Shown here piece after piece: positions 17,058 to 30,690 of a stretch of DNA of 32,000 nucleotides (the first letter of the stretch is position 1; every line of letters starts with the position of its first letter). This stretch comes from Methanopyrus kandleri AV19. GTDB lineage: Archaea; JAADCQ01; Methanopyri; Methanopyrales; Methanopyraceae. Location of the stretch: the NCBI RefSeq assembly GCF_000007185.1, contig NC_003551.1, positions 480,001-512,000 of the forward strand, read 5' to 3'. The notes beneath the pieces are model-generated. The model was not told the origin of the DNA, searched no databases, and saw nothing but the letters and a program-made list of their open reading frames with translations. Both the position numbers and the translations under genes were made by a program.

Positions 17058-17073
17058 TTCGATCCACTTCGAA
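17058..17073. promoter_or_regulatory. TTCG-N8-CGAA inverted repeat (MsvR-type box as I recall it) abutting the rubrerythrin-like gene promoter
   Basis: The sequence TTCGATCCACTTCGAA sits directly 5' of the A/T-rich box at 17072-17085. Its role as a regulator site is inferred, not shown. Confidence 0.3.
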
Positions 17074-17118: not shown

Positions 17119-17505
17119 ATGGACTTCGAGGAGTACCTCGAGAAGTGGTTCAAGGGCGAGACCACCGAGGTAGGCATCTACATGGCGATGGCCATCGTCG
17201 CTAGAGAGCAGGGCTACCCCGAAGTATGTGACCTGCTGGAGCAAATCGCTATGGACGAAGCCCGACACGCGGCCGCCGCGGCGCTGATCGCGGGGAAGGT
17301 CGAGAACAGTCTGGAGGGCCTGATCGAGAAGATGGAAGAAATGATTGAAGGTGAGAAAAACGCCTACGAAACCAGGATGGACGAAGCCGACCACCACTCC
17401 GACGAGCTGGACGACGAGATCATCACCCTGCTGAAGGCTACCGCATACGACGAAAAGCACCACAGGAAGATGCTCAAAGCGGCCCTCGAAAAGCTGAAGG
17501 AGTAA
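17119..17505 (+). CDS. Rubrerythrin-like ferritin-fold diiron protein (no rubredoxin domain)
   Basis: The ORF is open from 17032. ATG 17119 (MDFEEYLEKW) fits the promoter spacing. Four-helix diiron ligand pattern: ETTEVGIY, MDEARH (ExxH), EGEKNAYE (ExxE), YDEKHH (ExxH). There is no C-terminal CxxC...CxxC. Confidence 0.8.
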   Translation: MDFEEYLEKWFKGETTEVGIYMAMAIVAREQGYPEVCDLLEQIAMDEARHAAAAALIAGKVENSLEGLIEKMEEMIEGEKNAYETRMDEADHHSDELDDEIITLLKATAYDEKHHRKMLKAALEKLKE

Positions 17506-17571: not shown

Positions 17572-18342
17572 TTGAGGTACGTCGACGCACATGTGCACCT
17601 CGACGTTAGGAGTTACGAAGACCTCGAGAGAATGGCCTTATCTGGAGTCCGAACCGTCGTCACGTGCGCTCACGATCCTTACCCCGACATGACGGCCGAG
17701 GTGTACTCCGCCCTCTTCAGAAGGCTCCTCGGGGTGGAAACGTGGAGGGGCGAAAAGGCCGGGCTCACGGTTAAGGTGGCCGTGGGAGTACATCCCGGAG
17801 GCGTACCGGATAACATGAGCGACGTGCTACGGGAAGTCGAGGAACTCCTGAGTCATGAGGACGTCGTCGCGATCGGAGAGACCGGCCTCAACGAAAATCC
17901 GGATGATAGAGAAATCCAAGTCCTGGAGGCTCAGCTGAAGTTAGCCCGAGAGCACGAGGTACCCATCATTGTCCACACGCCGAGCAGGAACAAGGTCGAG
18001 ATCACCGAGAAGGTGTTGGAGATCCTGAACTCTTCGGGTATAGACCCCTCTCTGGTGCTGGTGGACCACGCCTCGGCGGAGACCGTCTCGCTCATCGGTG
18101 AGGAAGGGTACGCGGTCGGGCTGACACTCCGACCGGGAGAGCTCGATGTGTGGGAAGCGTGTGATATCGTGGAGGAGTACGCCGACGAAATGACGCTCAT
18201 CGCGAGCAGCGACCTGGGATCTCTAGCCGCCGATCCACTCGCCCTCCCCAAGCTGGCCCTCGAACTGGAACGCCGGAACGTCGAGAAGAGCATCATCCGG
18301 GACGTCGTAGCCCGGAACGCTGAGAGGTTTTACGGGCTCTAA
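17572..18342 (+). CDS. TatD-related TIM-barrel metal-dependent hydrolase (archaeal COG1099 type)
   Basis: 256 aa, TTG start. It has VDAHVHLD (HxH), AIGETGLN, PIIVHTP and a VDH segment, typical of the TatD/amidohydrolase fold. Confidence 0.8.
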   Translation: MRYVDAHVHLDVRSYEDLERMALSGVRTVVTCAHDPYPDMTAEVYSALFRRLLGVETWRGEKAGLTVKVAVGVHPGGVPDNMSDVLREVEELLSHEDVVAIGETGLNENPDDREIQVLEAQLKLAREHEVPIIVHTPSRNKVEITEKVLEILNSSGIDPSLVLVDHASAETVSLIGEEGYAVGLTLRPGELDVWEACDIVEEYADEMTLIASSDLGSLAADPLALPKLALELERRNVEKSIIRDVVARNAERFYGL

Positions 18343-18532: not shown

Positions 18533-19327
18533 TTGAGAACCAACGTTTACCCAAGGGGCTGTGAGGATCGATTGCGCTTCGCCGCACTCTACTCCCACCA
18601 GTTCGGTAAGAGGATGGTAGCCAACCTACTGAACGAACCCGGTCACTGCAGGGCTTGCGGGCCTGTATGCGACGGGTGCAAGTACGACATGTATTCGCTC
18701 GTCGACTCCCTCGTCGCCGTTGAGGAGCTACCCAAACCCGAAGAGTTACCTCCGTTCGTCGACGAGCCCGAGGATCACCTCCCCGAACTACCGCCCGTCG
18801 ATGTGCTGGTGGCGATCGGATTGCATCCCGACCTCCTAGTAGCGCTGTCCGAAGTATACGAGATTAAGGCACTGATAGTGCCCGTCGAGGAACCCGACTG
18901 GATCGACCCGTGGATCGAAGAGAAACTACGAGAGGTATGCGAAGAGAACAGCGTAGAGCTCACTGTGGCGAGGCCAGGATGCGACCTGGAACCGTCGGGT
19001 CCCGTAACCGAAGCGTTCTGCGACGCGGGCATGATCGGGAGGCCTAAGCTGTTCATGAAGGTCGAGGACGGCGTCGTGATCGACGTCCATGTAGTACGAT
19101 CGGCGCCGTGCGGTTGCACGTGGTTCGTGGCTAAACGACTGGTCGGTGTGGACGCTGATCCCGAAGAGGTGAAGGCTACAGTTTCCGAGGCACATCACTC
19201 GTACCCCTGCACGGCTTCGATGGAGGTCGACAAGCACGTGGGGGATACCCTGCTCCACGTAGCGGGCCGGTTGCACATCGAGGCGGCCCTCCGAGCGCTC
19301 GAGGAAGCGACGGATACCGACGCCTGA
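18533..19327 (+). CDS. Conserved archaeal Cys-rich protein, DUF166/COG1810-like
   Basis: LYSHQFGKRMVANLLN, CRACG..CDGC, SAPCGCTWFVAKRL, AHHSYPCTASM and DTLLHVAG match the DUF166 pattern I remember (family assignment from memory). The start is uncertain among TTG 18533, TTG 18572 and ATG 18614. Confidence 0.6.
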   Translation: MRTNVYPRGCEDRLRFAALYSHQFGKRMVANLLNEPGHCRACGPVCDGCKYDMYSLVDSLVAVEELPKPEELPPFVDEPEDHLPELPPVDVLVAIGLHPDLLVALSEVYEIKALIVPVEEPDWIDPWIEEKLREVCEENSVELTVARPGCDLEPSGPVTEAFCDAGMIGRPKLFMKVEDGVVIDVHVVRSAPCGCTWFVAKRLVGVDADPEEVKATVSEAHHSYPCTASMEVDKHVGDTLLHVAGRLHIEAALRALEEATDTDA

Positions 19328-19335
19328 CGGGTATC

Positions 19336-19704
19336 TCACGCCCCGCCCAGTACTCGCTCCAAAACTTCCCGGAACAGTCTCCACTTATCCCCGTGCAGAC
19401 TGTACTCCCTGCGCACGTCGTCCTCGATGTCCTCAGCCCTGTAACCGACGGGATAGTACGTCGAGACGAGCTCCCCGTTTCGGCGCTCCGGTCTCAGCTC
19501 GATTTCACCCCGACGGAGCAGGTCGAAGATCGCTTCCTTCACGTCGACGGAGAAGTAGGGTGCCTTGAGCAACATGCAGTGACCGTATTCCGTTCCCGTC
19601 AATGGTCTTCCGGTCTCACGTTCGAAAGCTTTGTCGAGCAAATACACCGCACGGAACAAGGAGCGCTTATCTACGCCCGGTCGGAACGCGACGATGTACT
19701 TCAT
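19336..19704 (-). CDS. Hypothetical protein, divergent from the CODH cluster (weak SocA/Panacea-like resemblance)
   Basis: The ORF is open to 19764; ATG 19704 (MKYIVAFRPG...) is more natural. LFRAVYLLDKAFERETGRPLTGTEYGHCMLLKAPYFSVDVKEAIFDLLRRGEI loosely resembles the KL.YL.d.....G.plt...y.....GPy pattern. The function call is speculative. Confidence 0.5.
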   Translation of the reverse strand: MKYIVAFRPGVDKRSLFRAVYLLDKAFERETGRPLTGTEYGHCMLLKAPYFSVDVKEAIFDLLRRGEIELRPERRNGELVSTYYPVGYRAEDIEDDVRREYSLHGDKWRLFREVLERVLGGA

Positions 19705-19825
19705 CAGCGGCCGCAAGTTAGCGCCCGTCGGTTTGACCGTGTGACACCTGCACCGGGCGTGCAACCTGGGTCCCCCTTGTATCAGTATGTTCGAAAGTGT
19801 CCAAACGTTTGATGAAAATCGAAAC

Positions 19826-19833
19826 TAATATAA
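19826..19833 (+). promoter_or_regulatory. TATA-like box (TAATATAA) upstream of the CODH-like gene
   Basis: This is the most A/T-rich element in the 19765-19900 spacer and lies about 70 nt upstream of GTG 19901. The predicted leader would contain the direct repeats at 19859-19888 and GGGGATCCCC, which is both SD-like and palindromic. Confidence 0.35.
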
Positions 19834-19858: not shown

Positions 19859-19888
19859 ATAGTATCGAACGTTCCCATAGTACCGAAC
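19859..19888 (+). repeat. Direct repeat ATAGTA(T/C)CGAAC x2, 18-nt period, in the CODH cluster leader/promoter
   Basis: ATAGTATCGAAC (19859-19870) and ATAGTACCGAAC (19877-19888) match at 11 of 12 positions. The first copy overlaps the palindrome GAACGTTC (19867-19874). Confidence 0.8.
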
Positions 19889-19900
19889 AAGGGGATCCCC

Positions 19901-21817
19901 GTGGAGGAAAAGAGATCCTCGTGCCCGTACGCCGATGAAGCCGTGTGTGAGCTAGTCGAGCACGCGAAGGAGCTGAATGAGGAGATTCCGGAGATAGAGA
20001 CCCCGCACATCCGATGGCCCGTTCAGTTCCCGAAGTGCCCGTACGGCAAGCAAGGCGTCTGGTGTAACATCTGCTCGAACGGCCCGTGCCGAATTACGGA
20101 GAAGACACCACGCGGTGTCTGCGGAGCGACGGCGGACGTGATCGTGGCACGCAACTTCTTGCGTCACGTCGCCGCCGGAGCCGCGTGCTACGTGCACTGC
20201 CTGGAGAACGCCGCCCGGGCCCTCAAGTCCGTGGCGGACGAGGAATCTCCTTACGAGATCGCAGACGAGAAGGCGCTGAGGCACGCTGCCGAAGTATACG
20301 GTCTAGATACCTCCGGTAAACCGGAAGATGTGGCCGAGGAGATCGCAGAGTTCATTCTCGAGGATATCTACAGGCCCAGATATGAGGAGTCCGAGGTGTT
20401 CAAGGCTGTTGTACCCGATTGGCGCATCGAGATGTACGAGGAAATGGGCCTAATTCCGGGCGGAGCTAAGTCGGAGATACACGACGCCCTTGTCAAGACG
20501 AGTACGAACCTCAACTCAGACCCCGTTGACATGCTCCTCCACGTGCTGCGACTGGGACTGATCACCGGCCCTGTCGCGCTCTTCGGTGTGGAGACGATCA
20601 ACGATATCCTCTTCGGCAGCCCGAAGATCACGCAAACGGAGGGTGGTCCCGGAATACTGGACCCGGACTACGTCAACATCATGACGACCGGCCACCAGAT
20701 GGCTCTCATGAAGTACCTGACGGACGCCGCCGAGAAGCTGGAAGAAGAGGCCAAGGCGGCGGGAGCTAAAGGTATCCGGATCATCGGTGCGACGTGCGTC
20801 GGCGACGATTTCGAGGCGCGCGCCGAGCACCTACCAGACACGTACGCGGGCTTCGCGGGTAACAATTTCGCGACGGAGGCGCTCGCAGCAACGGGTCTCG
20901 TGGACGCGATCGTGAGCGAGTTCAACTGCACGTTCCCGGGTCTGAAGTTCTACAAGGAGAAGCTGGACGTCGAGCTGGTCGCCGTCGACGACGTGGCCAA
21001 GGTGTGGGGCGCGGAGCTGATCCTCTGGGACCCGGAGCGTGCCGAGGAGGTCGCGGAGGAGGCCGTCCAGAGGGCCATTGAGGCGTTCAAGGAGCGCCGG
21101 TCGAAGCACGAGGACAAGATCATGGAGCCGAAGCACAGGCACGAGAACGTGGTGGGGTTCGGATACTTCTCGATCGAGGAGGCCGTCGGCTGGGAGAACG
21201 TGCTCAAGCTGATCGAAGAAGGCACCATCCGCGGCGTGTGCGCCATCATGGGCTGCACGAATCTCTCCAGCGGCGGCCACAACGTGCCGGCGGTCGAGCT
21301 CGCCAAGGAGATGATCAAGCGCGACGTGCTCGTGCTCGGCGCCGGCTGTGTGAACGGGGCGTTCGCCAACGCTGGACTGTTCAACCCTGAAGCAGCCGAG
21401 CTGGCCGGTGACAACCTCCGACAGGTGTGCGAGGAGTTAGGTATTCCACCGGTGCTGCATTACGGCCCATGTCTGGCGATCGGTAAGATCGAGCATCTCG
21501 TCTTCGAGATCGCCGAGATACTTCGAGAGAAAACCGGCGAGGAAATCGACATCCCGGACGTACCCGCCGTCGCGAGCGCGCCGCAGTGGCTCGAGGAGCA
21601 AGCCCTAGCGGACGCGTCCTCGGCCTTAGCTCTAGGTATCACGCTGCACGTGAGTCCCGTACCGCCGGTGACCGGTAGCGAGCTGGTTACGAAGACGCTG
21701 CTGGAGGACCTACCGGATCTCACCGGCGGCGAGCTGATCGTGGAGACGGACATGAAGCGTGCCGGAGAGATTCTCGCCGAGAAGATCGAGGAGAAGCGGA
21801 AACGGCTTGGTATCTAA
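19901..21817 (+). CDS. cooS: Ni-dependent carbon monoxide dehydrogenase catalytic subunit homolog (CooS type, divergent)
   Basis: 638 aa, colinear over its full length with C. hydrogenoformans CODH-II as I recall it. B-cluster motif: WCNICSNGPCR...GVCGAT. C-cluster ligand equivalents: TGHQ (His261), GATCVG (Cys295), FNCTFP (Cys333), MGCTN (Cys446), GAGCVNG (Cys476), YGPCLA (Cys526). GTG start with a GGGGATCC SD. Confidence 0.9.
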   Translation: MEEKRSSCPYADEAVCELVEHAKELNEEIPEIETPHIRWPVQFPKCPYGKQGVWCNICSNGPCRITEKTPRGVCGATADVIVARNFLRHVAAGAACYVHCLENAARALKSVADEESPYEIADEKALRHAAEVYGLDTSGKPEDVAEEIAEFILEDIYRPRYEESEVFKAVVPDWRIEMYEEMGLIPGGAKSEIHDALVKTSTNLNSDPVDMLLHVLRLGLITGPVALFGVETINDILFGSPKITQTEGGPGILDPDYVNIMTTGHQMALMKYLTDAAEKLEEEAKAAGAKGIRIIGATCVGDDFEARAEHLPDTYAGFAGNNFATEALAATGLVDAIVSEFNCTFPGLKFYKEKLDVELVAVDDVAKVWGAELILWDPERAEEVAEEAVQRAIEAFKERRSKHEDKIMEPKHRHENVVGFGYFSIEEAVGWENVLKLIEEGTIRGVCAIMGCTNLSSGGHNVPAVELAKEMIKRDVLVLGAGCVNGAFANAGLFNPEAAELAGDNLRQVCEELGIPPVLHYGPCLAIGKIEHLVFEIAEILREKTGEEIDIPDVPAVASAPQWLEEQALADASSALALGITLHVSPVPPVTGSELVTKTLLEDLPDLTGGELIVETDMKRAGEILAEKIEEKRKRLGI

Positions 21818-21849
21818 TTCTCACCCCCACTTCCGGGATGGTGGTGACC

Positions 21850-22950
21850 ATGGAGATCGAGGCGATCCGTGTAGCAACGGGAGCTCCTGGCGAACTGTAT
21901 ATGGTAGCCGAGATCGCGGAGGACAAGGTCGTGAACGCCGAAGTGTGCTCGGGCACGACACCGATCTCCTGGGAGACGCTCGTCCTCGAGAAGCCCGTGG
22001 AGTTCGCCGTAGTGGCCGCCGAACGAGTATGCGCCAGCTGTGACGCGAGCCTAGGGCTCGCCGTGGTCGAGGCGGCCGAGGCAGCTCTCAACGTCGAGAT
22101 CCCGGACGAGGCGGAGCGAGCGCGCGAGATCCTGAACATGGCTAACGTCGTCAGGGCGCACGCCACCGTGCTGGCGAGGACTGACTTCCTCGACGTGAAG
22201 AAGCCCGCGTACGACCTAGTGAGAGCTGCGAAGGACATCATGCACGCCGTCGGAGGGAAGCCCGACCACCCACCGGCCGTGACCGTAGGCGGTTTGGACC
22301 TCGAAAAGCTGCCCGTAGACAGGGTTGAATCCGTAGCTAAGGACGCCGCCGAGGTGGCAGACAGGCTTGAGGACGAGGTCGGATCCGCGGTAGATCGGAT
22401 GAAGGAAGATATCGACGTGGAACCGGAGGAGATGCCGGCGGGACTGAAGGTTTCGGACACGTACAAGGGCGACATAGACCCAGACAAGGTCGAGACGCTA
22501 ATGCCGGATGAATTCTACCGTATGAAGACCACCCTGGAGATAGCGAACAACGTCGTCGCCAGGTATGACGGGGAGCCCGTCCTCGTCGGTCCTTACGCCC
22601 GAGTAAGGAGCGCGGAAAACCCGCTGGACCTCTACACCGCCAGGGCCGAGGAAGTAGCGAGGATGCTCGACGGTATCGCAAACGCCGTATCCAGGCTAGA
22701 TCCGACCGGGAACTTCCGAACGGACGTCGAGCTCGGCTCGGGCGAGGGTACGGCGGCTGTGGAGGCACCGGAGGGTACCCTGATCGTCTCGCTGAGACTA
22801 CGGGCCGGGCGCGTGGACAAGGCCCTGATGTTAACTCCATGCAACTTCAAGGTTGCGGCGATCGGGGAGATGGTGCGCGACCTGACGGTTGACAGGGCTG
22901 AGACAGTTCTACGCGCGATCGGCCTCTCCGGTAGATGTCTTACCCACTAG
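21850..22950 (+). CDS. [NiFe]-hydrogenase large-subunit homolog (FrhA-like, group 3), active-site motifs degenerate
   Basis: ATG 21850 (MEIEAIRV) is preceded by GGTGGTGA; ATG 21838 is also in frame. It is colinear with FrhA: ERVCASCDAS corresponds to RxCGxCxxxH, EAPEGTLIVSL to EAPRGxLxH, and the C-terminus RAIGLSGRCLTH-stop to RAYDPCLSCATH. Confidence 0.8.
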   Translation: MEIEAIRVATGAPGELYMVAEIAEDKVVNAEVCSGTTPISWETLVLEKPVEFAVVAAERVCASCDASLGLAVVEAAEAALNVEIPDEAERAREILNMANVVRAHATVLARTDFLDVKKPAYDLVRAAKDIMHAVGGKPDHPPAVTVGGLDLEKLPVDRVESVAKDAAEVADRLEDEVGSAVDRMKEDIDVEPEEMPAGLKVSDTYKGDIDPDKVETLMPDEFYRMKTTLEIANNVVARYDGEPVLVGPYARVRSAENPLDLYTARAEEVARMLDGIANAVSRLDPTGNFRTDVELGSGEGTAAVEAPEGTLIVSLRLRAGRVDKALMLTPCNFKVAAIGEMVRDLTVDRAETVLRAIGLSGRCLTH

Positions 22951-22963
22951 GGGGAAGCCCAAG

Positions 22964-23680
22964 ATGAAGGTGGCTGTGCTGTCCCTTATGGCTTGTGGTA
23001 CATGCGCCAGGAACCTGGAGGAGGTTTGCCACGAAGAGGGTCATGAGGTGGTCTGGTCGAACCTAGAAGGCGACGAGGGAGAACCGGACGCCGACATTCT
23101 GTTCGTAGAAGGCGCGGTGGACTTCGCCGACGCCGAGACCCTGGAAAAGTTAGAGGAGGCCGCTTCGGCCGTCAGTACCGTGGTATCACTGGGTTCCTGT
23201 GCCGCTACCGGGGGTTTCGAGCGACACGTCATAGGCATGCGCGACCCCGACCGGTACCACTTCACGGTCTTCCCAGCTGCCAAGTTCGTCGAAACGGACT
23301 ATGCGATCAACGGCTGTCCACCTACTACGGACGTGATCGCGTCCTTCCTCAGAGCTCTAGAGGAGGAGAACGAGGACGAACTCCGACCGTACGAAGTCTT
23401 GTCCGGGGATTTCCACGGGCTCACGCCGGAACTGTCCGCTCCGGTGACCGGTCCGACGGTACCGGTCGAGGACGTACTCCTGACGTCGAACAAGGACCTG
23501 TGCCTGGGCTGCGACCTGGACGTGATTGAGAAGGACCTCTTCTGCGTCGGCTGCGGAACGTGTGCCGCCTCCTGCCCGGCGTGGGCTATCGAGATGGACG
23601 AGAAGCCCGTAATCCGGCAAGAGAGGTGCGTTCGATGCGGAACTTGCTTCGTAAGCTGCCCGAGATCGTTCAGGATATGA
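22964..23680 (+). CDS. Hydrogenase small-subunit homolog (FrhG-like) with C-terminal 2x[4Fe-4S] ferredoxin domain
   Basis: ATG 22964 (MKVAVLSLMACGTCARN). Proximal-cluster pattern: CGTC, LGSCAATGG, INGCPP. Then CVGCGTCAASCP and CVRCGTCFVSCP. The ORF-track start at 22889 overlaps the upstream gene and is unlikely. Confidence 0.85.
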   Translation: MKVAVLSLMACGTCARNLEEVCHEEGHEVVWSNLEGDEGEPDADILFVEGAVDFADAETLEKLEEAASAVSTVVSLGSCAATGGFERHVIGMRDPDRYHFTVFPAAKFVETDYAINGCPPTTDVIASFLRALEEENEDELRPYEVLSGDFHGLTPELSAPVTGPTVPVEDVLLTSNKDLCLGCDLDVIEKDLFCVGCGTCAASCPAWAIEMDEKPVIRQERCVRCGTCFVSCPRSFRI

Positions 23681-23699
23681 ACCCAACGGGAGGTGATCC

Positions 23700-24623
23700 G
23701 TGTTGCGCAAGCTGATCCGAAGAATAGCAGGGGGCAAAGAGGAAGAGAATACCCGTGAGGGATCTCCCGAGAACGATCTCCCGGACCCCGAGGTCGTGGG
23801 TGAGTACCGCGAGGTTTACCTGACCCGCGCAACCGACGAACGTATCCGCGAGCACGGACAGGACGGAGGTACTACTACGGCGCTACTCGCCCACGCACTG
23901 GAGGAGGACACGGTGGAAGCCGTGATTGCCTCGTCGACAGTCGAGACATGGAAGCCCGAACCCGTAATAGTCACCGATCCCGACGAACTGATCGAGACCG
24001 CGGGATCGAAGTACGCGATTTCTCCGAACGTGAGTGCCCTCAACGAGGCCATAGCCTCCTACGACTCAGTCGCCCTCGTGGGCACGCCGTGTCAGATCAC
24101 CGCCGTAAAGAAGTCTAAAATGTACCCTTACGGCCTGGCTAACGTGACGGAGCGTGTGAAGCTAACCGTCGGCATCTTCTGCACCGAGAACTTCCAGTAC
24201 GAGAGCCTACTGAAGCTGCTCGAAGACATGGGTGTCGACGTCGAGAACGTCGAGCGTATGGACATCAGCCACGGTGAATTCATCGTACGCACTAAGAACG
24301 GTGATGTGCACTCGGTATCGGTTTCCAAGCTAGGCGATTACGCCAACGAGGCGTGTAACTACTGCACGGACTTCACGGCCGAGGACGCCGACATCAGCGT
24401 GGGATCCGTCGGCGCGCCGGATGGCTGGAACGTGGTTCTGGTCCGGACGAAAGAAGGCGAGAAGGTGTTCCGGTCCGCCGTAGACGCTGACGTCCTGGAA
24501 GTCAAAGATATCGGGGAAGGGGACCCGAACCTGCTCGAGCGCCTGGCCAGGGACAAGAAGGAACGCATTCACACCTCCATGTGTGCCACTTGGAGACCTT
24601 ATCACCCTACCGTTCCTCTCTAA
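23700..24623 (+). CDS. FrhB/FdhB-family F420-interacting FAD/FeS subunit homolog
   Basis: 307 aa. GQDGGTTTALLAHALEE, GSKYAISP, VALVGTPCQITAVKK, GIFCTENF and CNYCTDFTAEDADISVGSVG match FrhB N- and C-domain signatures. GTG 23700 gives a charged extension of about 30 aa; GTG 23796 is an alternative start. Confidence 0.85.
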   Translation: MLRKLIRRIAGGKEEENTREGSPENDLPDPEVVGEYREVYLTRATDERIREHGQDGGTTTALLAHALEEDTVEAVIASSTVETWKPEPVIVTDPDELIETAGSKYAISPNVSALNEAIASYDSVALVGTPCQITAVKKSKMYPYGLANVTERVKLTVGIFCTENFQYESLLKLLEDMGVDVENVERMDISHGEFIVRTKNGDVHSVSVSKLGDYANEACNYCTDFTAEDADISVGSVGAPDGWNVVLVRTKEGEKVFRSAVDADVLEVKDIGEGDPNLLERLARDKKERIHTSMCATWRPYHPTVPL

Positions 24624-24664: not shown

Positions 24665-25129
24665 GTGATCAAGCCACGAGATTTCCTGAGGTATTTCCTC
24701 TACTCTTACATCGTAACTTCCGCACAGCTGCTGGGAGATAAGGCCCCTACTCTACGGCGGATGGTATGCAAAAACGTGGTAAAGGCGTTGCTACGCGAGC
24801 ATCCGGAGCTGAAAGATGCCGAACCGGTGGAGCTTGTCAAAGATGTGGCGGAGAGCTTCCTAGGGGCCGACGTCAGGATAGAAGAGAAGTCAACGGAAAC
24901 CGTCGTACACGTGAGAGGGTGCAAGATCTGCCCACGCGATCTGATCGAAGAGTTTACAGGTGAGAACCCCGACCTGGAGGGTCCCGTCTTCAGCTACAAC
25001 GTGTGCGCGTTTGTGACCATGGTTGAGGAGATTCTGCACGCTCTGGGCCACATAGATTCCGACATCAAGCATGACCCAATCAAACGCGGGCGCTGCCGCG
25101 TAATCGTCAGGCCTAAGGGCACGGACTGA
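24665..25129 (+). CDS. Small stand-alone V4R-like domain protein
   Basis: The ORF is open from 24581; GTG 24665 or ATG 24761 are plausible starts. LLGDKAPTLRRMVCKNVVKAL...VVHVRGCKICPRD...NVCAFVTMVEEIL...RGRCRVIVRP resembles the V4R pattern (helical N-part, then C-x2-C ... C ... C in beta strands). Assigned by eye. Confidence 0.55.
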   Translation: MIKPRDFLRYFLYSYIVTSAQLLGDKAPTLRRMVCKNVVKALLREHPELKDAEPVELVKDVAESFLGADVRIEEKSTETVVHVRGCKICPRDLIEEFTGENPDLEGPVFSYNVCAFVTMVEEILHALGHIDSDIKHDPIKRGRCRVIVRPKGTD

Positions 25130-25143
25130 AACGGGGTCTTCAA

Positions 25144-25872
25144 TTGACCGTCCCGACGTTCCTTCGCAAGGTGACCCTGCGTGAGATCTGTGTCATTGAG
25201 GAGTACGTGGACGTCCAATACAGGGCTATCGAAGCGTTGATGGACACACTACCTTCGACCGACCTCGTCCGGCTGACCGTAGCCAATGCTCTCGTCAGCT
25301 ATCAGCTCTCGAGCTCTGGAGAGGATTGGTGGCGTGAGTTCTCCAGCTACTTCCGTGAACGTCGTCCGAGGGACATCGTTCGAGAGTACGCCCGGTTCCT
25401 TCCCCGCTCTAGGGGCAATCGGAGGCTCATCCGTCAGAAGCTCCGCCGCCTCCATCGTGCTAAGGCCTTTCTAGAGGAGTTATCCTGGCAGGACGCGAAA
25501 TCGTACTACCGTGACATGAACCGGTTACGCCTTGACCTTGCTCGGGTCCTCAACGCCGATCCCGAGTCTAAGACGATCGTGTTCACGGTCAAGATGTTCG
25601 GGTACGCACTAAGGGCGATAACGGGTAGGTTTCGTCCTTATCCGTTCGAGATTCCGATTCCTGTGGACGCGAGGATCGAACGAATCACCCGAAGGATCAC
25701 GAACGATGATCCACAACTGTACTGGGACTCGATCGCACGGCGGACAGGCATCCCACCACTACACCTTGACTCGATCCTATGGGTCGGGACGAGTCGGGAT
25801 CCAGAGGTAAAGAGACTGCTGGCAAAAGTCTTACCGAAGCTTATAGGGGAACTGGAGATGTTGGGCAATTGA
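25144..25872 (+). CDS. agog: Archaeal 8-oxoguanine DNA glycosylase / N-glycosylase-DNA lyase (AGOG family)
   Basis: 242 aa, TTG start. ANALVSYQLSSSGEDWWREF, KTIVFTVKMFGYA, IPIPVDARIERIT and PPLHLDSILW follow the AGOG (Pyrobaculum Pa-AGOG type) HhH pattern as I recall it. Confidence 0.8.
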   Translation: MTVPTFLRKVTLREICVIEEYVDVQYRAIEALMDTLPSTDLVRLTVANALVSYQLSSSGEDWWREFSSYFRERRPRDIVREYARFLPRSRGNRRLIRQKLRRLHRAKAFLEELSWQDAKSYYRDMNRLRLDLARVLNADPESKTIVFTVKMFGYALRAITGRFRPYPFEIPIPVDARIERITRRITNDDPQLYWDSIARRTGIPPLHLDSILWVGTSRDPEVKRLLAKVLPKLIGELEMLGN

Positions 25873-25931: not shown

Positions 25932-26097
25932 CATAAGTGATCCGAGAGGACGGAACGACTCGCGACGTATTGGAGGCGATTTTTTGTTAACCTAACGATG
26001 ACGAGCTCGGGGTTCGGTTCGGGCAGACAAAGTACGGTCGGTGGGGGGTCCGAGCTGGTACGGCCCGGCAGTCAGAACCTTCGAGGGGACCCGAGCT

Positions 26098-26835
26098 ATG
26101 AAACTGGTGATCGACGTACCGAAGGAGATCGCTAAGGCCTTGGACAGCAAAACACGACGTGAAATCCTGAAACTGCTGGAAGAACGCGGCTCGATGACGA
26201 TATCGGACATCGCCAGGGAGCTGAACCTGTCCAAATCAACTGTCCATCACCATTTACAGGAACTCCGAAAGGCCGGTCTCGTGGACGTCATCAAAGAGGA
26301 TCGCGAAACTCCCCTCCCGAAGCGCTACTACGGGCTCGTGAGAAGACTCGTCCGAGTATCGAAGCCGAAGCTTGAAGATGCCTCCGAGTATGTCATAAAA
26401 GCCCTAGAACGTGGGGAGGACCTGAGAACATCGATGTTCCTAGCGATCGCGGCAGCGTATCGCGCGGTGTTGGAGTCCCTGGGTATCGACGCCTCGGAGG
26501 TCCTGTACGAGCTCGGAAAGGAGATCGGTAAGCGACTCGCGGAACTAGGATCCGAAGAGACCGTGCTGCGGAAGGGCTTGGAGATCATAGCCGAGTCAGT
26601 AGAATTCCGTCAGGAGAACGACCGTGTGGTGGTCGAGATTGAAGGATGCCACGAGTGTTCCGACCTACCCTACGGTCCCGCATGTCATTTGGAGGCGGGA
26701 ATCATAGCCGGTGTTCTGTCGAACCTGAGGGAACGACCTTACGAAGTCCGGGAGGTGGAGTGCTGCGGGGAAGGCGCTGATAGATGCGTGTTCGTGGCGG
26801 AACCAGCTACTGACGAAGAACGCCCCAAGTCCTAG
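26098..26835 (+). CDS. msvR: ArsR-type wHTH + C-terminal V4R domain transcription regulator (MsvR family-like)
   Basis: ATG 26098 (MKLVIDVPKEIAKALDSKTRREILKLLEERGSMTISDIARELNLSKSTVHHHLQELRKAGLV) is an ArsR HTH. The C-terminus VVEIEGCHECSDLPYGPACHLEAGIIAGVL...VECCGEGADRCVFVAEP is a V4R domain. The ORF is open from GTG 26041. Confidence 0.8.
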   Translation: MKLVIDVPKEIAKALDSKTRREILKLLEERGSMTISDIARELNLSKSTVHHHLQELRKAGLVDVIKEDRETPLPKRYYGLVRRLVRVSKPKLEDASEYVIKALERGEDLRTSMFLAIAAAYRAVLESLGIDASEVLYELGKEIGKRLAELGSEETVLRKGLEIIAESVEFRQENDRVVVEIEGCHECSDLPYGPACHLEAGIIAGVLSNLRERPYEVREVECCGEGADRCVFVAEPATDEERPKS

Positions 26836-29805: not shown

Positions 29806-29916
29806 CTAAGGATGGGGATGATGGAGGCCCTCCCTAGCCGAGGGAACCGATGAGGATCCAGCCCTTTCGCCGACCCCCCAGTGAAATGCTGTCCGGAGGA
29901 GAACGGGGGGACCCGC

Positions 29917-30690
29917 TTGAAGAAACCCGTCGACGCTCACTGTCATCTTTGCTTCAAATACTTCAAAGGCGAGGAAGACGAAGTGGTAGAACGGTCACGG
30001 AAGAAGGTGTTACGCGTGTACGACTGCGGGGCTACCCCTGGAACCGCACGGCGAACCCTGGAGTTAGCGGAGAGATTCGAGGGGTTCGTGTTCTCCACGA
30101 TCGGGCTCCATCCCCCACGAGCGCCGAGGATGCAGCAGAGCGTCATCGATGACGTGGTCCGAATTATCCGTGAGCACGCCGACAGGATCGCGGCAATTGG
30201 AGAGATAGGTCTTGACTACCACTACGTGAAGGAACCCGGAGAGCGCAGGAGGATGCGAGAGGTCTTCGAGAGGTTCCTGAAGCTCGCGGAAGAGCTCGAC
30301 AAGCCGGTAGTGATTCACGCCAGGGATGCGGAAGAGCACGCCCTCGAGGTCCTAGAGGACTACGACGTAGTCGCCATGTTCCACTGCTACGACGGACCGG
30401 CCGAGCTCGCCCGGCGTATCGCGGACGCCGGCCACTACGTTTCACTGTCGACGATTCACGTCATTCGTGGACCGAAGGATGAGAGAACGCGGGAACTGCT
30501 GGAGACTGTACCGTTGGAAGCGGCACTTACGGAGACGGACAGCCCATACCTGTCACCGGTGCGGGGAGAACGCAACGAGCCTCGGAACGTGTGGAGGGTA
30601 ATAGAGTTGCTCGCGCGGGTGAAGGGAGTCCCCGTCGGCGAGGTAGTTGAGACCACGGCGCGTAACGCGCTGGAGTTCTACGATCTATGA
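29917..30690 (+). CDS. tatD: TatD-family metal-dependent hydrolase / DNase (COG0084 type)
   Basis: The ORF is open from GTG 29881. TTG 29917 gives (M)KKPVDAHCHL, the usual TatD opening. It also has AIGEIGLDYHY, PVVIHARDA, MFHCY and TETDSPYL. Confidence 0.85.
   Translation: MKKPVDAHCHLCFKYFKGEEDEVVERSRKKVLRVYDCGATPGTARRTLELAERFEGFVFSTIGLHPPRAPRMQQSVIDDVVRIIREHADRIAAIGEIGLDYHYVKEPGERRRMREVFERFLKLAEELDKPVVIHARDAEEHALEVLEDYDVVAMFHCYDGPAELARRIADAGHYVSLSTIHVIRGPKDERTRELLETVPLEAALTETDSPYLSPVRGERNEPRNVWRVIELLARVKGVPVGEVVETTARNALEFYDL

Follow-up and report, generated by a model that had tools for sequence, protein, structure and literature searches.

A clade C CO dehydrogenase gene and hydrogenase-like genes without a working NiFe site in Methanopyrus kandleri: a candidate CO:F420 oxidoreductase in an oxidative-stress gene neighborhood

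What kind of enzyme is encoded when a gene for a carbon monoxide dehydrogenase (CODH) is followed, almost without a gap, by genes for what look like the subunits of a coenzyme F420-reducing hydrogenase, and where would its electrons go? This question is raised by four genes of Methanopyrus kandleri AV19, found at positions 19901-24623 of a 32,000-nucleotide (nt) stretch of its chromosome (here, the window; positions 480,001 to 512,000 of contig NC_003551.1). Unless a locus is named, coordinates refer to the window. The first-pass annotation had described the cluster as a divergent homolog of the Ni-CODH CooS joined to homologs of the hydrogenase large (FrhA), small (FrhG), and F420-binding (FrhB) subunits, and had read it as a hydrogenase scaffold turned to a new use. 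The hydrogenase-like proteins are here called FrhA', FrhG', and FrhB. The features considered below are an FrhA' without a working NiFe site, the loss of one CooS metal cluster in the Frh-linked lineages, and a conserved set of oxidative-stress genes; they point to a candidate CO:F420 oxidoreductase. The four genes are as follows.

19901-21817, + strand: cooS, encoding 638 amino acids (aa); Shine-Dalgarno (SD)-like box GGGGATCC at 19891-98
21850-22950, + strand: frhA' (frhA-like), encoding 366 aa from the ATG at 21850 or 370 aa from the alternative ATG at 21838; SD-like box GGTGGTGA at 21840-47
22964-23680, + strand: frhG' (frhG-like); SD-like box GGGGGAAG at 22950-57
23700-24623, + strand: frhB; perfect SD-like box GGAGGTGATCC at 23689-99

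All four open reading frames (ORFs) are co-directional and were confirmed, together with their SD-like boxes, at the coordinates originally assigned to them. The first three products are exact matches to the M. kandleri AV19 proteins AAM01751-AAM01753. The intergenic gaps are 32 nt (20 nt with the alternative frhA' start), 13 nt, and 19 nt, and each start is preceded by a stretch complementary to the 3' end of 16S rRNA. The ATG at 21850 is the likelier start of frhA', because FrhA-like homologs begin with MEIE. When other large ORFs of the window (selected among those of 100 aa or more) were scanned with Pfam, none encoded a CooF, CooC, Ech, acetyl-CoA synthase (ACS/Cdh), FrhD, or Hyp protein, in agreement with the earlier observation that the known CODH partners and FrhD are absent.

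All Methanopyri loci that were recovered (L001-L004, L014, and L015, representing four lineages besides that of the window) have the genes arranged as cooS-frhA'-frhG'-frhB, and so do Methanocaldococcus and Methanotorris (L005-L010 and L017). The window proteins are only 24 to 57% identical to their Methanocaldococcus and Methanotorris counterparts, and since the order is kept in both groups despite this divergence, it is not due to chance. The linkage of cooS to frh-like genes, which the first-pass annotation had singled out for a survey, is thus conserved. Within Methanopyri, identities are 88 to 91% for CooS, 70 to 82% for FrhG', 57 to 67% for FrhB, and 55 to 67% for FrhA'. A contig scan with the FrhA' alignment returned four Methanopyri loci only, the peptide patterns being specific to Methanopyri; the Methanocaldococcaceae loci were reached through CooS homologs and the contigs encoding them. 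In profile searches, FrhA'-type proteins are found in the Methanopyri and Methanocaldococcus/Methanotorris groups only.

FrhA' scores 120 bits against TIGR03295, whose cutoff is 392.5, and the Pfam NiFeSe_Hases match covers only residues 46-122. The N-terminal motif reads RVCASCDASL in place of RxCGxCxxxH, with loss of the motif His, and the C-terminal motif reads GLSGRCLTH in place of DPCxxCxxH, with loss of one of the two cysteines. Three of the four NiFe cysteines remain (the residual cysteines of the protein are C37, C65, C68, and C367), and the catalytic Arg is lost, the canonical EAPRG having become EAPEG. The last residue, a His, aligns with H386, the end of the mature FrhA of Methanothermobacter marburgensis (4ci0_A), and there is no C-terminal extension. 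Canonical FrhA is made as a preprotein whose C-terminal extension is removed by FrhD, with frhD located in the operon (PMC3087415). No peptidase gene of this kind for the maturation of FrhA' was found in the cluster or in the scanned large ORFs of the window. The AlphaFold2 model (predicted local distance difference test score [pLDDT], 72; predicted template modeling score [pTM], 0.74) aligns in Foldseek with the FrhA structures 9r51_A, 6qgr_A, and 3zfs_A at template modeling (TM) scores of 0.73 to 0.79. Judged by its residues and its predicted structure, FrhA' is a protein of the FrhA fold in which the NiFe site is not working, as the earlier description of degenerate catalytic motifs had implied.

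The Methanocaldococcus version is 298 aa long, is missing the first ~40 residues, and carries the motifs RLCYLNEISH, LCERCYYL, and EGGEG. It keeps a different set of three cysteines, and only two of the four NiFe cysteines are common to both lineages. Once selection on a site has ceased, its ligands are expected to be lost differently from lineage to lineage, as is the case here. When 1.84 billion representative proteins were searched with HMMER, a single close FrhA' cluster was obtained, with no close relative outside Methanopyri and the next relatives at ~1e-29. The canonical N-terminal motif is present in 37 of these next 44 relatives and EAPRG in 38 of them. Because the ORFs are intact, the ligands incomplete, and the identities within Methanopyri still at the values given above, FrhA' is maintained, but not for hydrogen chemistry.

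Three candidates were rejected. A decaying pseudogene does not fit an ORF that is intact in 10 of 10 loci, with GLSGRCLTH invariant within Methanopyri; a hidden selenocysteine (Sec) does not fit a TAG stop codon and a TCC Ser codon at the missing Cys position; and P0310, an intermediate FrhA-like match of 412 aa, sits in a sulfhydrogenase-type operon and is unrelated. As a separate observation, a metagenome-assembled genome (MAG) of Methanobacteriaceae encodes an FrhA variant (P0164; MDO5851663.1) with the motif RICATDSLTH, in which the second Cys is lost and EAPRG is missing, while NPCSHCATH is intact and the C-terminal extension is present. Degenerate FrhA paralogs may be commoner than the annotations suggest.

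These properties bear on the default reading in the literature, in which a genuine F420-reducing [NiFe]-hydrogenase stands beside a CODH and serves hydrogenogenic CO oxidation or H2-dependent F420 reduction. Database annotations of the type "coenzyme F420-reducing hydrogenase alpha/gamma subunit" and published statements (PMC3082573, PMC4652020, and PMC13240472) agree with it. However, FrhA' fails every catalytic-site criterion (the Cys set, the EAPRG Arg, and, in Methanopyrus, the motif His), has neither the extension nor an FrhD to remove it, falls far below the family cutoff, is N-terminally short by ~40 aa in Methanocaldococcus, and differs from its next relatives, most of which are canonical. 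Furthermore, almost all archaea that use Sec, Methanopyrales among them, are reported to have a Sec-type FrhA, and a real Frh is therefore expected at another place in the genome. With regard to canonical frhADGB genes elsewhere in M. kandleri, no Methanopyrus names appeared among the top FrhA relatives in the exhaustive search. Taken together, a working hydrogenase encoded at this locus is extremely improbable.

The other two hydrogenase-like subunits have kept their cluster ligands and, in FrhB, the FAD loop and the GSVG loop at F420, in line with the first-pass annotation. FrhG' combines the Oxidored_q6 domain with a dicluster ferredoxin domain (both from Pfam), scores 130 bits against TIGR03294 (cutoff, 245.5), matches 3zfs_B with an E value of 1e-28, and was also aligned to 9r51_C. 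Its 14 cysteines are invariant across six genomes of both lineages: four (in CxxC, GSCA, and GCPP) belong to the proximal cluster and 10 to the C-terminal domain (CLGC plus two CxxCxxCxxxC motifs), which carries the medial and distal [4Fe-4S] clusters. FrhB contains both FrhB_FdhB domains, passes the subfamily model NF006807 (356 bits; cutoff, 269), and reaches 271 bits with the FrhB equivalog model (cutoff, 331.5). It matches 3zfs_C with an E value of 2e-66 and 8riu_B with an E value of 8e-53. The four cluster cysteines, the KY FAD loop, and the GSVG F420 loop are all kept (residues as in PMC3591093). In Methanopyri, FrhB has a charged 31-aa N-terminal extension (23700-23792 in the window) that is absent from the Methanocaldococcus and canonical proteins. 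With these residues conserved, the FrhG'/FrhB electron wire is read as intact, and FrhB as a putative F420-binding subunit.

CooS, which would have to feed this wire, scores 731.1 bits against the equivalog model TIGR01702 (cutoff, 478), aligning with model positions 3-621 of 621. Its score against the cdhA model TIGR00314 is 28 bits (cutoff, 781), so it is of the CooS type and not of the CdhA type. The best PDB matches are 6t7j, 7b7q, and 6elq, and the alignment to 6t7j served as the reference for reading the motif columns. The C-cluster ligands are complete (H265, C299, C343, C452, C483, and C524; H261, C295, C333, C446, C476, and C526 in ChCODH-II numbering), and the motifs TTGHQ, GATCVG, EFNCT, MGCTN, GAGCVN, and YGPCLA are kept in the window CooS and its relatives. 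The four B-cluster cysteines are also present (W-C-NI-C-SNGP-C ... GV-C-GA; reference residues C48, C51, C56, and C70). At the acid/base positions, Tyr97 (in AACYVH) and Gln567 (in LEEQAL) replace His93 and Lys563, as in every aligned clade C protein, and this pair is a known trait of clade C (Inoue 2019, Table 2; PMC6344411). The D cluster is affected as well: Cys46 is kept, and the second ligand position is occupied by Trp54, compared to two cysteines per monomer in the reference enzymes (C39 and C47, or CxxC). A single D-cluster Cys is the mark of structural group C-3, a deep-branching archaeal part of clade C that was defined for Methanocaldococcus and Methanotorris in a study from whose table M. 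kandleri is missing (Inoue 2019; PMC6344411). From these residues, the window CooS is classified as a clade C Ni-CODH of group C-3. The earlier label "divergent" therefore holds for the clade-wide Tyr/Gln pair and the loss of the D cluster but not for the family assignment, as the protein passes the CooS equivalog cutoff.

CooS is 55 to 56% identical to the Methanocaldococcus proteins and 46 to 51% identical to those of bacterial clade C. In a neighbor-joining tree (without bootstrap), Methanopyri, Methanocaldococcaceae, and the protein P0053 together form a sister group to bacterial clade C. The closest nonarchaeal CooS, P0042, is 48% identical and is encoded in the order Rrf2-CooS-CooF-FNOR, where FNOR is an FAD/NAD(P) oxidoreductase; the CooS-CooF-FNOR arrangement is typical for clade C (PMC6344411 and PMC13056359). 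P0053 (L013 4067-6551) is 51% identical to the window protein and groups with the archaeal branch; it has kept the D-cluster Cys pair, has no frh' genes, and is divergently oriented from a gene for an ArsR-V4R regulator (L013 3322-3954). The P0053 gene is followed by one for cytochrome bd oxidase subunit I, another O2-related pairing in this CODH lineage.

At the second D-cluster position, Trp is found in Methanopyri and Tyr in Methanocaldococcus, whereas P0053 and all bacterial clade C proteins compared have Cys-Cys. Since the loss of the D cluster coincides with the presence of an Frh'-type partner, CooS is taken to hand its electrons directly to that partner. The restriction of this loss to the Frh'-linked lineages is the best sequence-level sign in support of such direct wiring.

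It also helps to judge a reading in which the products work separately and are only co-regulated, FrhA'G'B being an F420H2:acceptor oxidoreductase (with, e.g., rubredoxin or rubrerythrin as the acceptor) and CooS operating with ferredoxin. In Thermococcus onnurineus, rubredoxin takes electrons directly from the FrhG clusters of FrhAGB and FrhAG (PMC13333549). Genes for rubredoxins, rubrerythrin, and desulfoferrodoxin adjoin the cluster, and a docking function would explain why the proximal cluster and the FrhA' shell are kept. Nevertheless, the gene order is strict in two archaeal classes, no FrhA'-type gene without cooS was found among the loci and relatives examined, and the D cluster, the normal exit to ferredoxin or CooF, is lost in exactly these CooS proteins. 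Separate action is accordingly judged unlikely.

The preferred reading is a soluble CooS-FrhA'-FrhG'-FrhB complex that would act as a CO:F420 oxidoreductase serving oxidant defense, and we see an about even chance that it is correct. In such a complex, a clade C (C-3) Ni-CODH would be wired to coenzyme F420 through an Frh-derived electron module, which would make it the archaeal, F420-using counterpart of the bacterial CooS-CooF-FNOR system. CO would be oxidized at the C cluster, and the electrons would pass to the B cluster and from there directly to an FrhG' cluster, without the usual D-cluster exit. The three [4Fe-4S] clusters of FrhG' would then lead to the [4Fe-4S] cluster of FrhB, its FAD, and F420, so that F420H2 would be produced without H2. 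FrhA' would be a noncatalytic relic, retained as the holder of FrhG' and FrhB. The F420H2 would serve the F420H2 oxidase FprA (in Methanocaldococcus) or rubrerythrin/rubredoxin systems. The domain content, the state of the ligands, and the conserved gene order and neighborhood are shown; that the proteins form a physical complex, use CO, pass electrons in this direction, and act in stress defense is inferred.

Transfer of electrons from CO to F420 is downhill, and the reverse is not, because E0' is ~-520 mV for CO and ~-340 to -380 mV for F420 (values as cited in PMC4652020). Flow from F420H2 to CO2, which the first-pass annotation had allowed for, is thermodynamically implausible. The complete C- and B-cluster ligands of CooS are in line with the proposed activity, as is the NikR gene that follows frhB in one Methanocaldococcus locus. 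Its parts have precedents: the clade C CooS of Thermoanaerobacter kivui copurifies with an adjacently encoded FeS protein, oxidizes CO weakly, and is needed for growth on CO (PMC8683389); a CODH of Ethanoperedens reduces F420 via an FrhB-type subunit that receives its electrons from a ferredoxin domain (PMC11493965); and T. onnurineus FrhAGB feeds rubredoxin for oxidative-stress defense (PMC13333549).

Several points weigh against a CO:F420 oxidoreductase. Clade C CODHs do not have the His/Lys acid-base pair, the only one purified is low in CO oxidation, and recent surveys doubt the CO/CO2 chemistry of clades C and D (PMC13056359). No CO source is evident in the gene context, and the cluster contains no CooC. 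In FrhB, the F420-phosphate turn IGKGK (residues ~190-196) reads ISHGE in AV19; it is I(S/T)xGK in other genomes, and MAG orthologs keep the Lys. Finally, a simple path from CooS through the ferredoxin domain of FrhG' to FrhB would leave the proximal cluster of FrhG' aside as a dead end, yet this cluster is conserved in full. This conservation hints at a role of the FrhA'/FrhG' interface beyond the proposed model. One such role would be a second working site, formed by the FrhA' pocket and the proximal cluster; besides the C cluster and F420, the complex would then have a third port, a new pocket that binds a substrate or acts as a sensor. CO or F420H2 could be oxidized with an oxidant as the electron acceptor, or the electrons could be divided between acceptors. 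Models for a site of this kind are the quinone site in complex I (NuoD/NuoB) and the sulfane site in the membrane-bound sulfane reductase (MBS). By analogy with them a second site is conceivable, but we consider it very doubtful.

The strongest clue to the function, absent from the first-pass annotation, is the oxidative-stress context of the cluster. The relevant neighbors in the window are as follows.

17119-17505, + strand: rubrerythrin-family gene (PF02915), first gene of the conserved island, 88 to 92% identical across the Methanopyri loci
17572-18342: TatD-family gene (a second TatD gene of the window lies at 29881-30690)
18533-19327: DUF166 gene, with a weak match to the selenoprotein family DfsP
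19336-19704, - strand: divergent ORF (orfM), ~120-141 aa, sharing the promoter region with cooS and without a family match
24665-25129, + strand: orf5, 154 aa, directly after frhB in every Methanopyri locus
25144-25872, + strand: AGOG-type 8-oxoguanine (8-oxoG) DNA glycosylase gene (PF09171, E value of 8e-83; NF009785, 367 bits), 14 nt past orf5
26041-26835, + strand: gene for a regulator with an ArsR-type helix-turn-helix (HTH) domain and a V4R domain (Pfam HTH_5 and V4R), with MsvR as the best NCBIfam match

Every Methanopyri locus retains the rubrerythrin, the DUF166 protein, the four-gene cluster, orf5, and the MsvR-like regulator, whereas TatD, the divergent ORF, and AGOG are present in a subset of them. 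A CMD/AhpD-like gene is also found downstream of the cluster in the window. The regulator scores 116 bits against the MsvR model NF053755, below the cutoff of 220, and an ArsR-V4R regulator flanks the island in every Methanopyri locus (e.g., L015 3069-3800). MsvR itself is a methanogen redox regulator that controls the fpaA-rlp-rub operon. In Methanocaldococcaceae, an Ogg-HhH 8-oxoG glycosylase is encoded directly after frhB (L008 11831-12589 and L017 11537-12157). Thus, two different families of 8-oxoG glycosylases are found just downstream of frhB, AGOG after orf5 in Methanopyri and Ogg in Methanocaldococcaceae. This looks like nonorthologous replacement at a similar position. Without a connection to oxidative damage common to both lineages, it would be difficult to account for.

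In one Methanocaldococcus locus (L005 601-13712), the cluster is part of a run of ~20 co-directional genes. They encode, in order, CMD, desulfoferrodoxin, rubredoxin, MTH865, ferritin, rubrerythrin-type proteins, peroxiredoxin, rubredoxin, rubrerythrin, DsrE, FprA, FMN reductase, and a flavoprotein, followed by cooS, frhA'G'B, NikR, and the hybrid-cluster protein (HCP); the locus includes two rubredoxins, an FprA-type flavodiiron protein, and two flavoproteins. It may represent one large oxidant-defense array with a nickel regulator inside. The conserved neighbors suggest that the reducing power generated by the complex would be used in defense against oxidants.

The same neighborhood can be read in favor of the opposite direction of flow. 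The complex would then oxidize F420H2 at FrhB, and its Tyr/Gln-modified C cluster would reduce an oxidant such as hydroxylamine, NO, or a species derived from O2 or peroxide, which would make it an F420H2-dependent detoxifying reductase with a role akin to that of HCP and CooS-V. The HCP gene lies two genes downstream of the cluster in L005, CODH and HCP widely co-occur, an MsvR-like regulator flanks the island, and the whole neighborhood is one of oxidant defense; the acid/base residues are also changed, as throughout clade C. The clade D protein CooS-V is reported to have no CO activity and to act, in all likelihood, in the stress response (PMC9311411 and PMC13056359). However, all ligands of the Ni-containing C cluster are intact here, unlike in CooS-V or clade B, the sequence names no candidate substrate, and the clade C enzyme of T. 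kivui oxidizes CO and is required for growth on it (PMC8683389). The detoxifying reductase, the main alternative, seems unlikely, and the CO:F420 oxidoreductase is retained as the preferred reading.

The upstream region contains the following elements.

19818-19825: B recognition element (BRE)-like sequence ATCGAAAC, before the TATA-like box
19826-19833, + strand: TATA-like box TAATATAA
19867-74 and 19883-88, + strand: conserved GAACGTTC and CCGAAC, respectively, between the TATA box and the cooS start codon

Two other Methanopyri loci share a (T/A)TATAA box ahead of cooS as the one conserved TATA box, and the TATA/BRE-like pair at 19818-19833 is the probable operon promoter. In a three-way Methanopyri alignment, AACGT and CGAAC upstream of cooS are invariant, making the stretch at 19867-19888 a candidate operator or 5' untranslated region element. 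With short gaps, strong SD-like boxes, and this single TATA box, the four genes are taken to form one operon, which in Methanopyri probably includes orf5. As a possible fifth operon member, orf5 belongs to a family of 151 to 158 aa (counterparts at L014 13719-14195 and L015 11824-12279) with five invariant cysteines (C35, CxxCP at 86-89, C114, and C144). It has no Pfam or NCBIfam match, and a BLASTP comparison with the neighboring V4R regulator gave nothing. Its single-sequence AlphaFold2 model is weak and shows faint matches to Bet3/TRAPP-like (V4R-like) folds, the best Foldseek matches being designed proteins. The orf5 product could serve as a fifth subunit, as a chaperone, or as a sensor. 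The divergent ORF, 71 to 77% identical in L001/L014 and L004/L015, may encode a regulator or an accessory factor.

Two further observations concern the surroundings. The TatD-DUF166 pair accompanies the cooS cluster in the window, in L004/L015, and in Methanocaldococcus L005 (14508-15875). A perfect palindrome, TTCGATCCACTTCGAA, is located at 17058-17073, ~45 nt before the probable start codon of the rubrerythrin gene (ATG 17119), and conforms to TTCG-N7-9-CGAA, which we take to be the pattern of MsvR boxes. The window contains four matches to this pattern (2.7 expected), which is not above chance, and none of them is at the cooS promoter.

The adjacency of the genes is not new and had been published four times: for M. 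kandleri and Methanocaldococcus vulcanius (Matson 2011; PMC3082573), for Methanocaldococcus jannaschii, where it was read as a hydrogenase operon (Diender 2015; PMC4652020), in Supplementary Tables 2 and 4 only of a third study (Inoue 2019; PMC6344411), and in a 2026 marine survey that called its role "unclear" (PMC13240472). Nor is an F420-reducing CODH new as such, one being known already in another architecture (PMC11493965). A literature search with the locus tags MJ0725-MJ0728 and MK0537 gave nothing relevant, and in the open-access literature, no statement was found on an FrhA' lacking the NiFe site, on D-cluster loss tracking the Frh partner, or on an island with MsvR, rubrerythrin, and 8-oxoG glycosylase. 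The nonworking NiFe site, the D-cluster loss confined to Frh-linked lineages, and the conserved oxidative-stress neighborhood appear to be new. No enzyme of this composition has been purified or characterized.

The function of the widespread clade C Ni-CODHs is debated, and reviews up to 2026 describe it as unclear. For the archaeal branch, the locus offers a testable hypothesis, with F420 as the partner, the "hydrogenase" of the literature being catalytically dead, and an MsvR-type oxidative-stress island, rather than energy metabolism, as the setting. If the complex is a true CO:F420 oxidoreductase, strict hydrogenotrophs would gain H2-independent F420H2 for O2 detoxification. The idea of possible hydrogenogenic CO oxidation in M. 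jannaschii would need revising. A soluble hydrogenase chassis kept as a scaffold for electron transfer would add a second, independent case of the kind of reuse that gave rise to complex I.

Among known systems, the bacterial CooS-CooF-FNOR module (Clostridium ljungdahlii/autoethanogenum CooS1 and T. kivui CooS-CooF1) has a CooS of the same clade, with a complete C cluster, the Tyr/Gln pair, and 46 to 51% identity to the window protein. It shares the logic of a CooS connected by an FeS wire to a flavoprotein that reduces a hydride carrier, and links to O2 exposure have been reported for the clostridial genes (PMC6344411). The bacterial module uses CooF and an FAD/NAD(P) oxidoreductase (as seen beside P0042), neither of which is encoded by the scanned ORFs of the window, where FrhG' and FrhB on a dead FrhA shell take their place; the D cluster is lost, and the regulator is MsvR-like (ArsR-V4R), not Rrf2. 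FrhABG of M. marburgensis (3ZFS/4OMF; frhADGB) has three homologous subunits with the same folds, and its FrhG cluster ligands and FrhB cluster cysteines, KY FAD loop, and GSVG loop are kept in the window proteins. The window module differs in lacking a functional NiFe site, FrhD, and the FrhA extension; its genes are ordered A-G-B behind cooS, and neither FrhA' nor FrhG' comes near the respective score cutoff. Its FrhG' has four cysteines at the proximal cluster, whereas M. marburgensis FrhG has Asp60 (PMC3591093).

The F420-reducing CODH of "Candidatus Ethanoperedens thermophilum" (alpha2 epsilon2 zeta2; PDB 8RIU; PMC11493965) combines, as here, a Ni-CODH with an FrhB-family protein and a 2x[4Fe-4S] unit. 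However, it is of the CdhA type (clade A) within the acetyl-CoA decarbonylase/synthase (ACDS) complex, it has no homologs of the hydrogenase large or small subunits, and its ferredoxin domain is fused to FrhB in the zeta subunit, a fusion that the window FrhB does not have. T. onnurineus FrhAGB is, like the module proposed here, an Frh module of a hyperthermophile that feeds stress defense via the FrhG clusters (PMC13333549). Unlike the window module, it has an active, H2-oxidizing [NiFe] site, comes from a nonmethanogen, and has no CODH link. T. onnurineus is not known to have F420. The closest parallels to FrhA' and FrhG' as a pair are NuoD/NuoB and MbsL/MbsJ of the Pyrococcus MBS, in which a large-subunit homolog with lost or partial NiFe cysteines stands beside a small subunit with a retained proximal cluster. 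Both pairs belong to group-4 relatives located in the membrane, whose former NiFe pocket has turned into a new substrate site, whereas the chassis encoded in the window is that of a soluble group-3 Frh.

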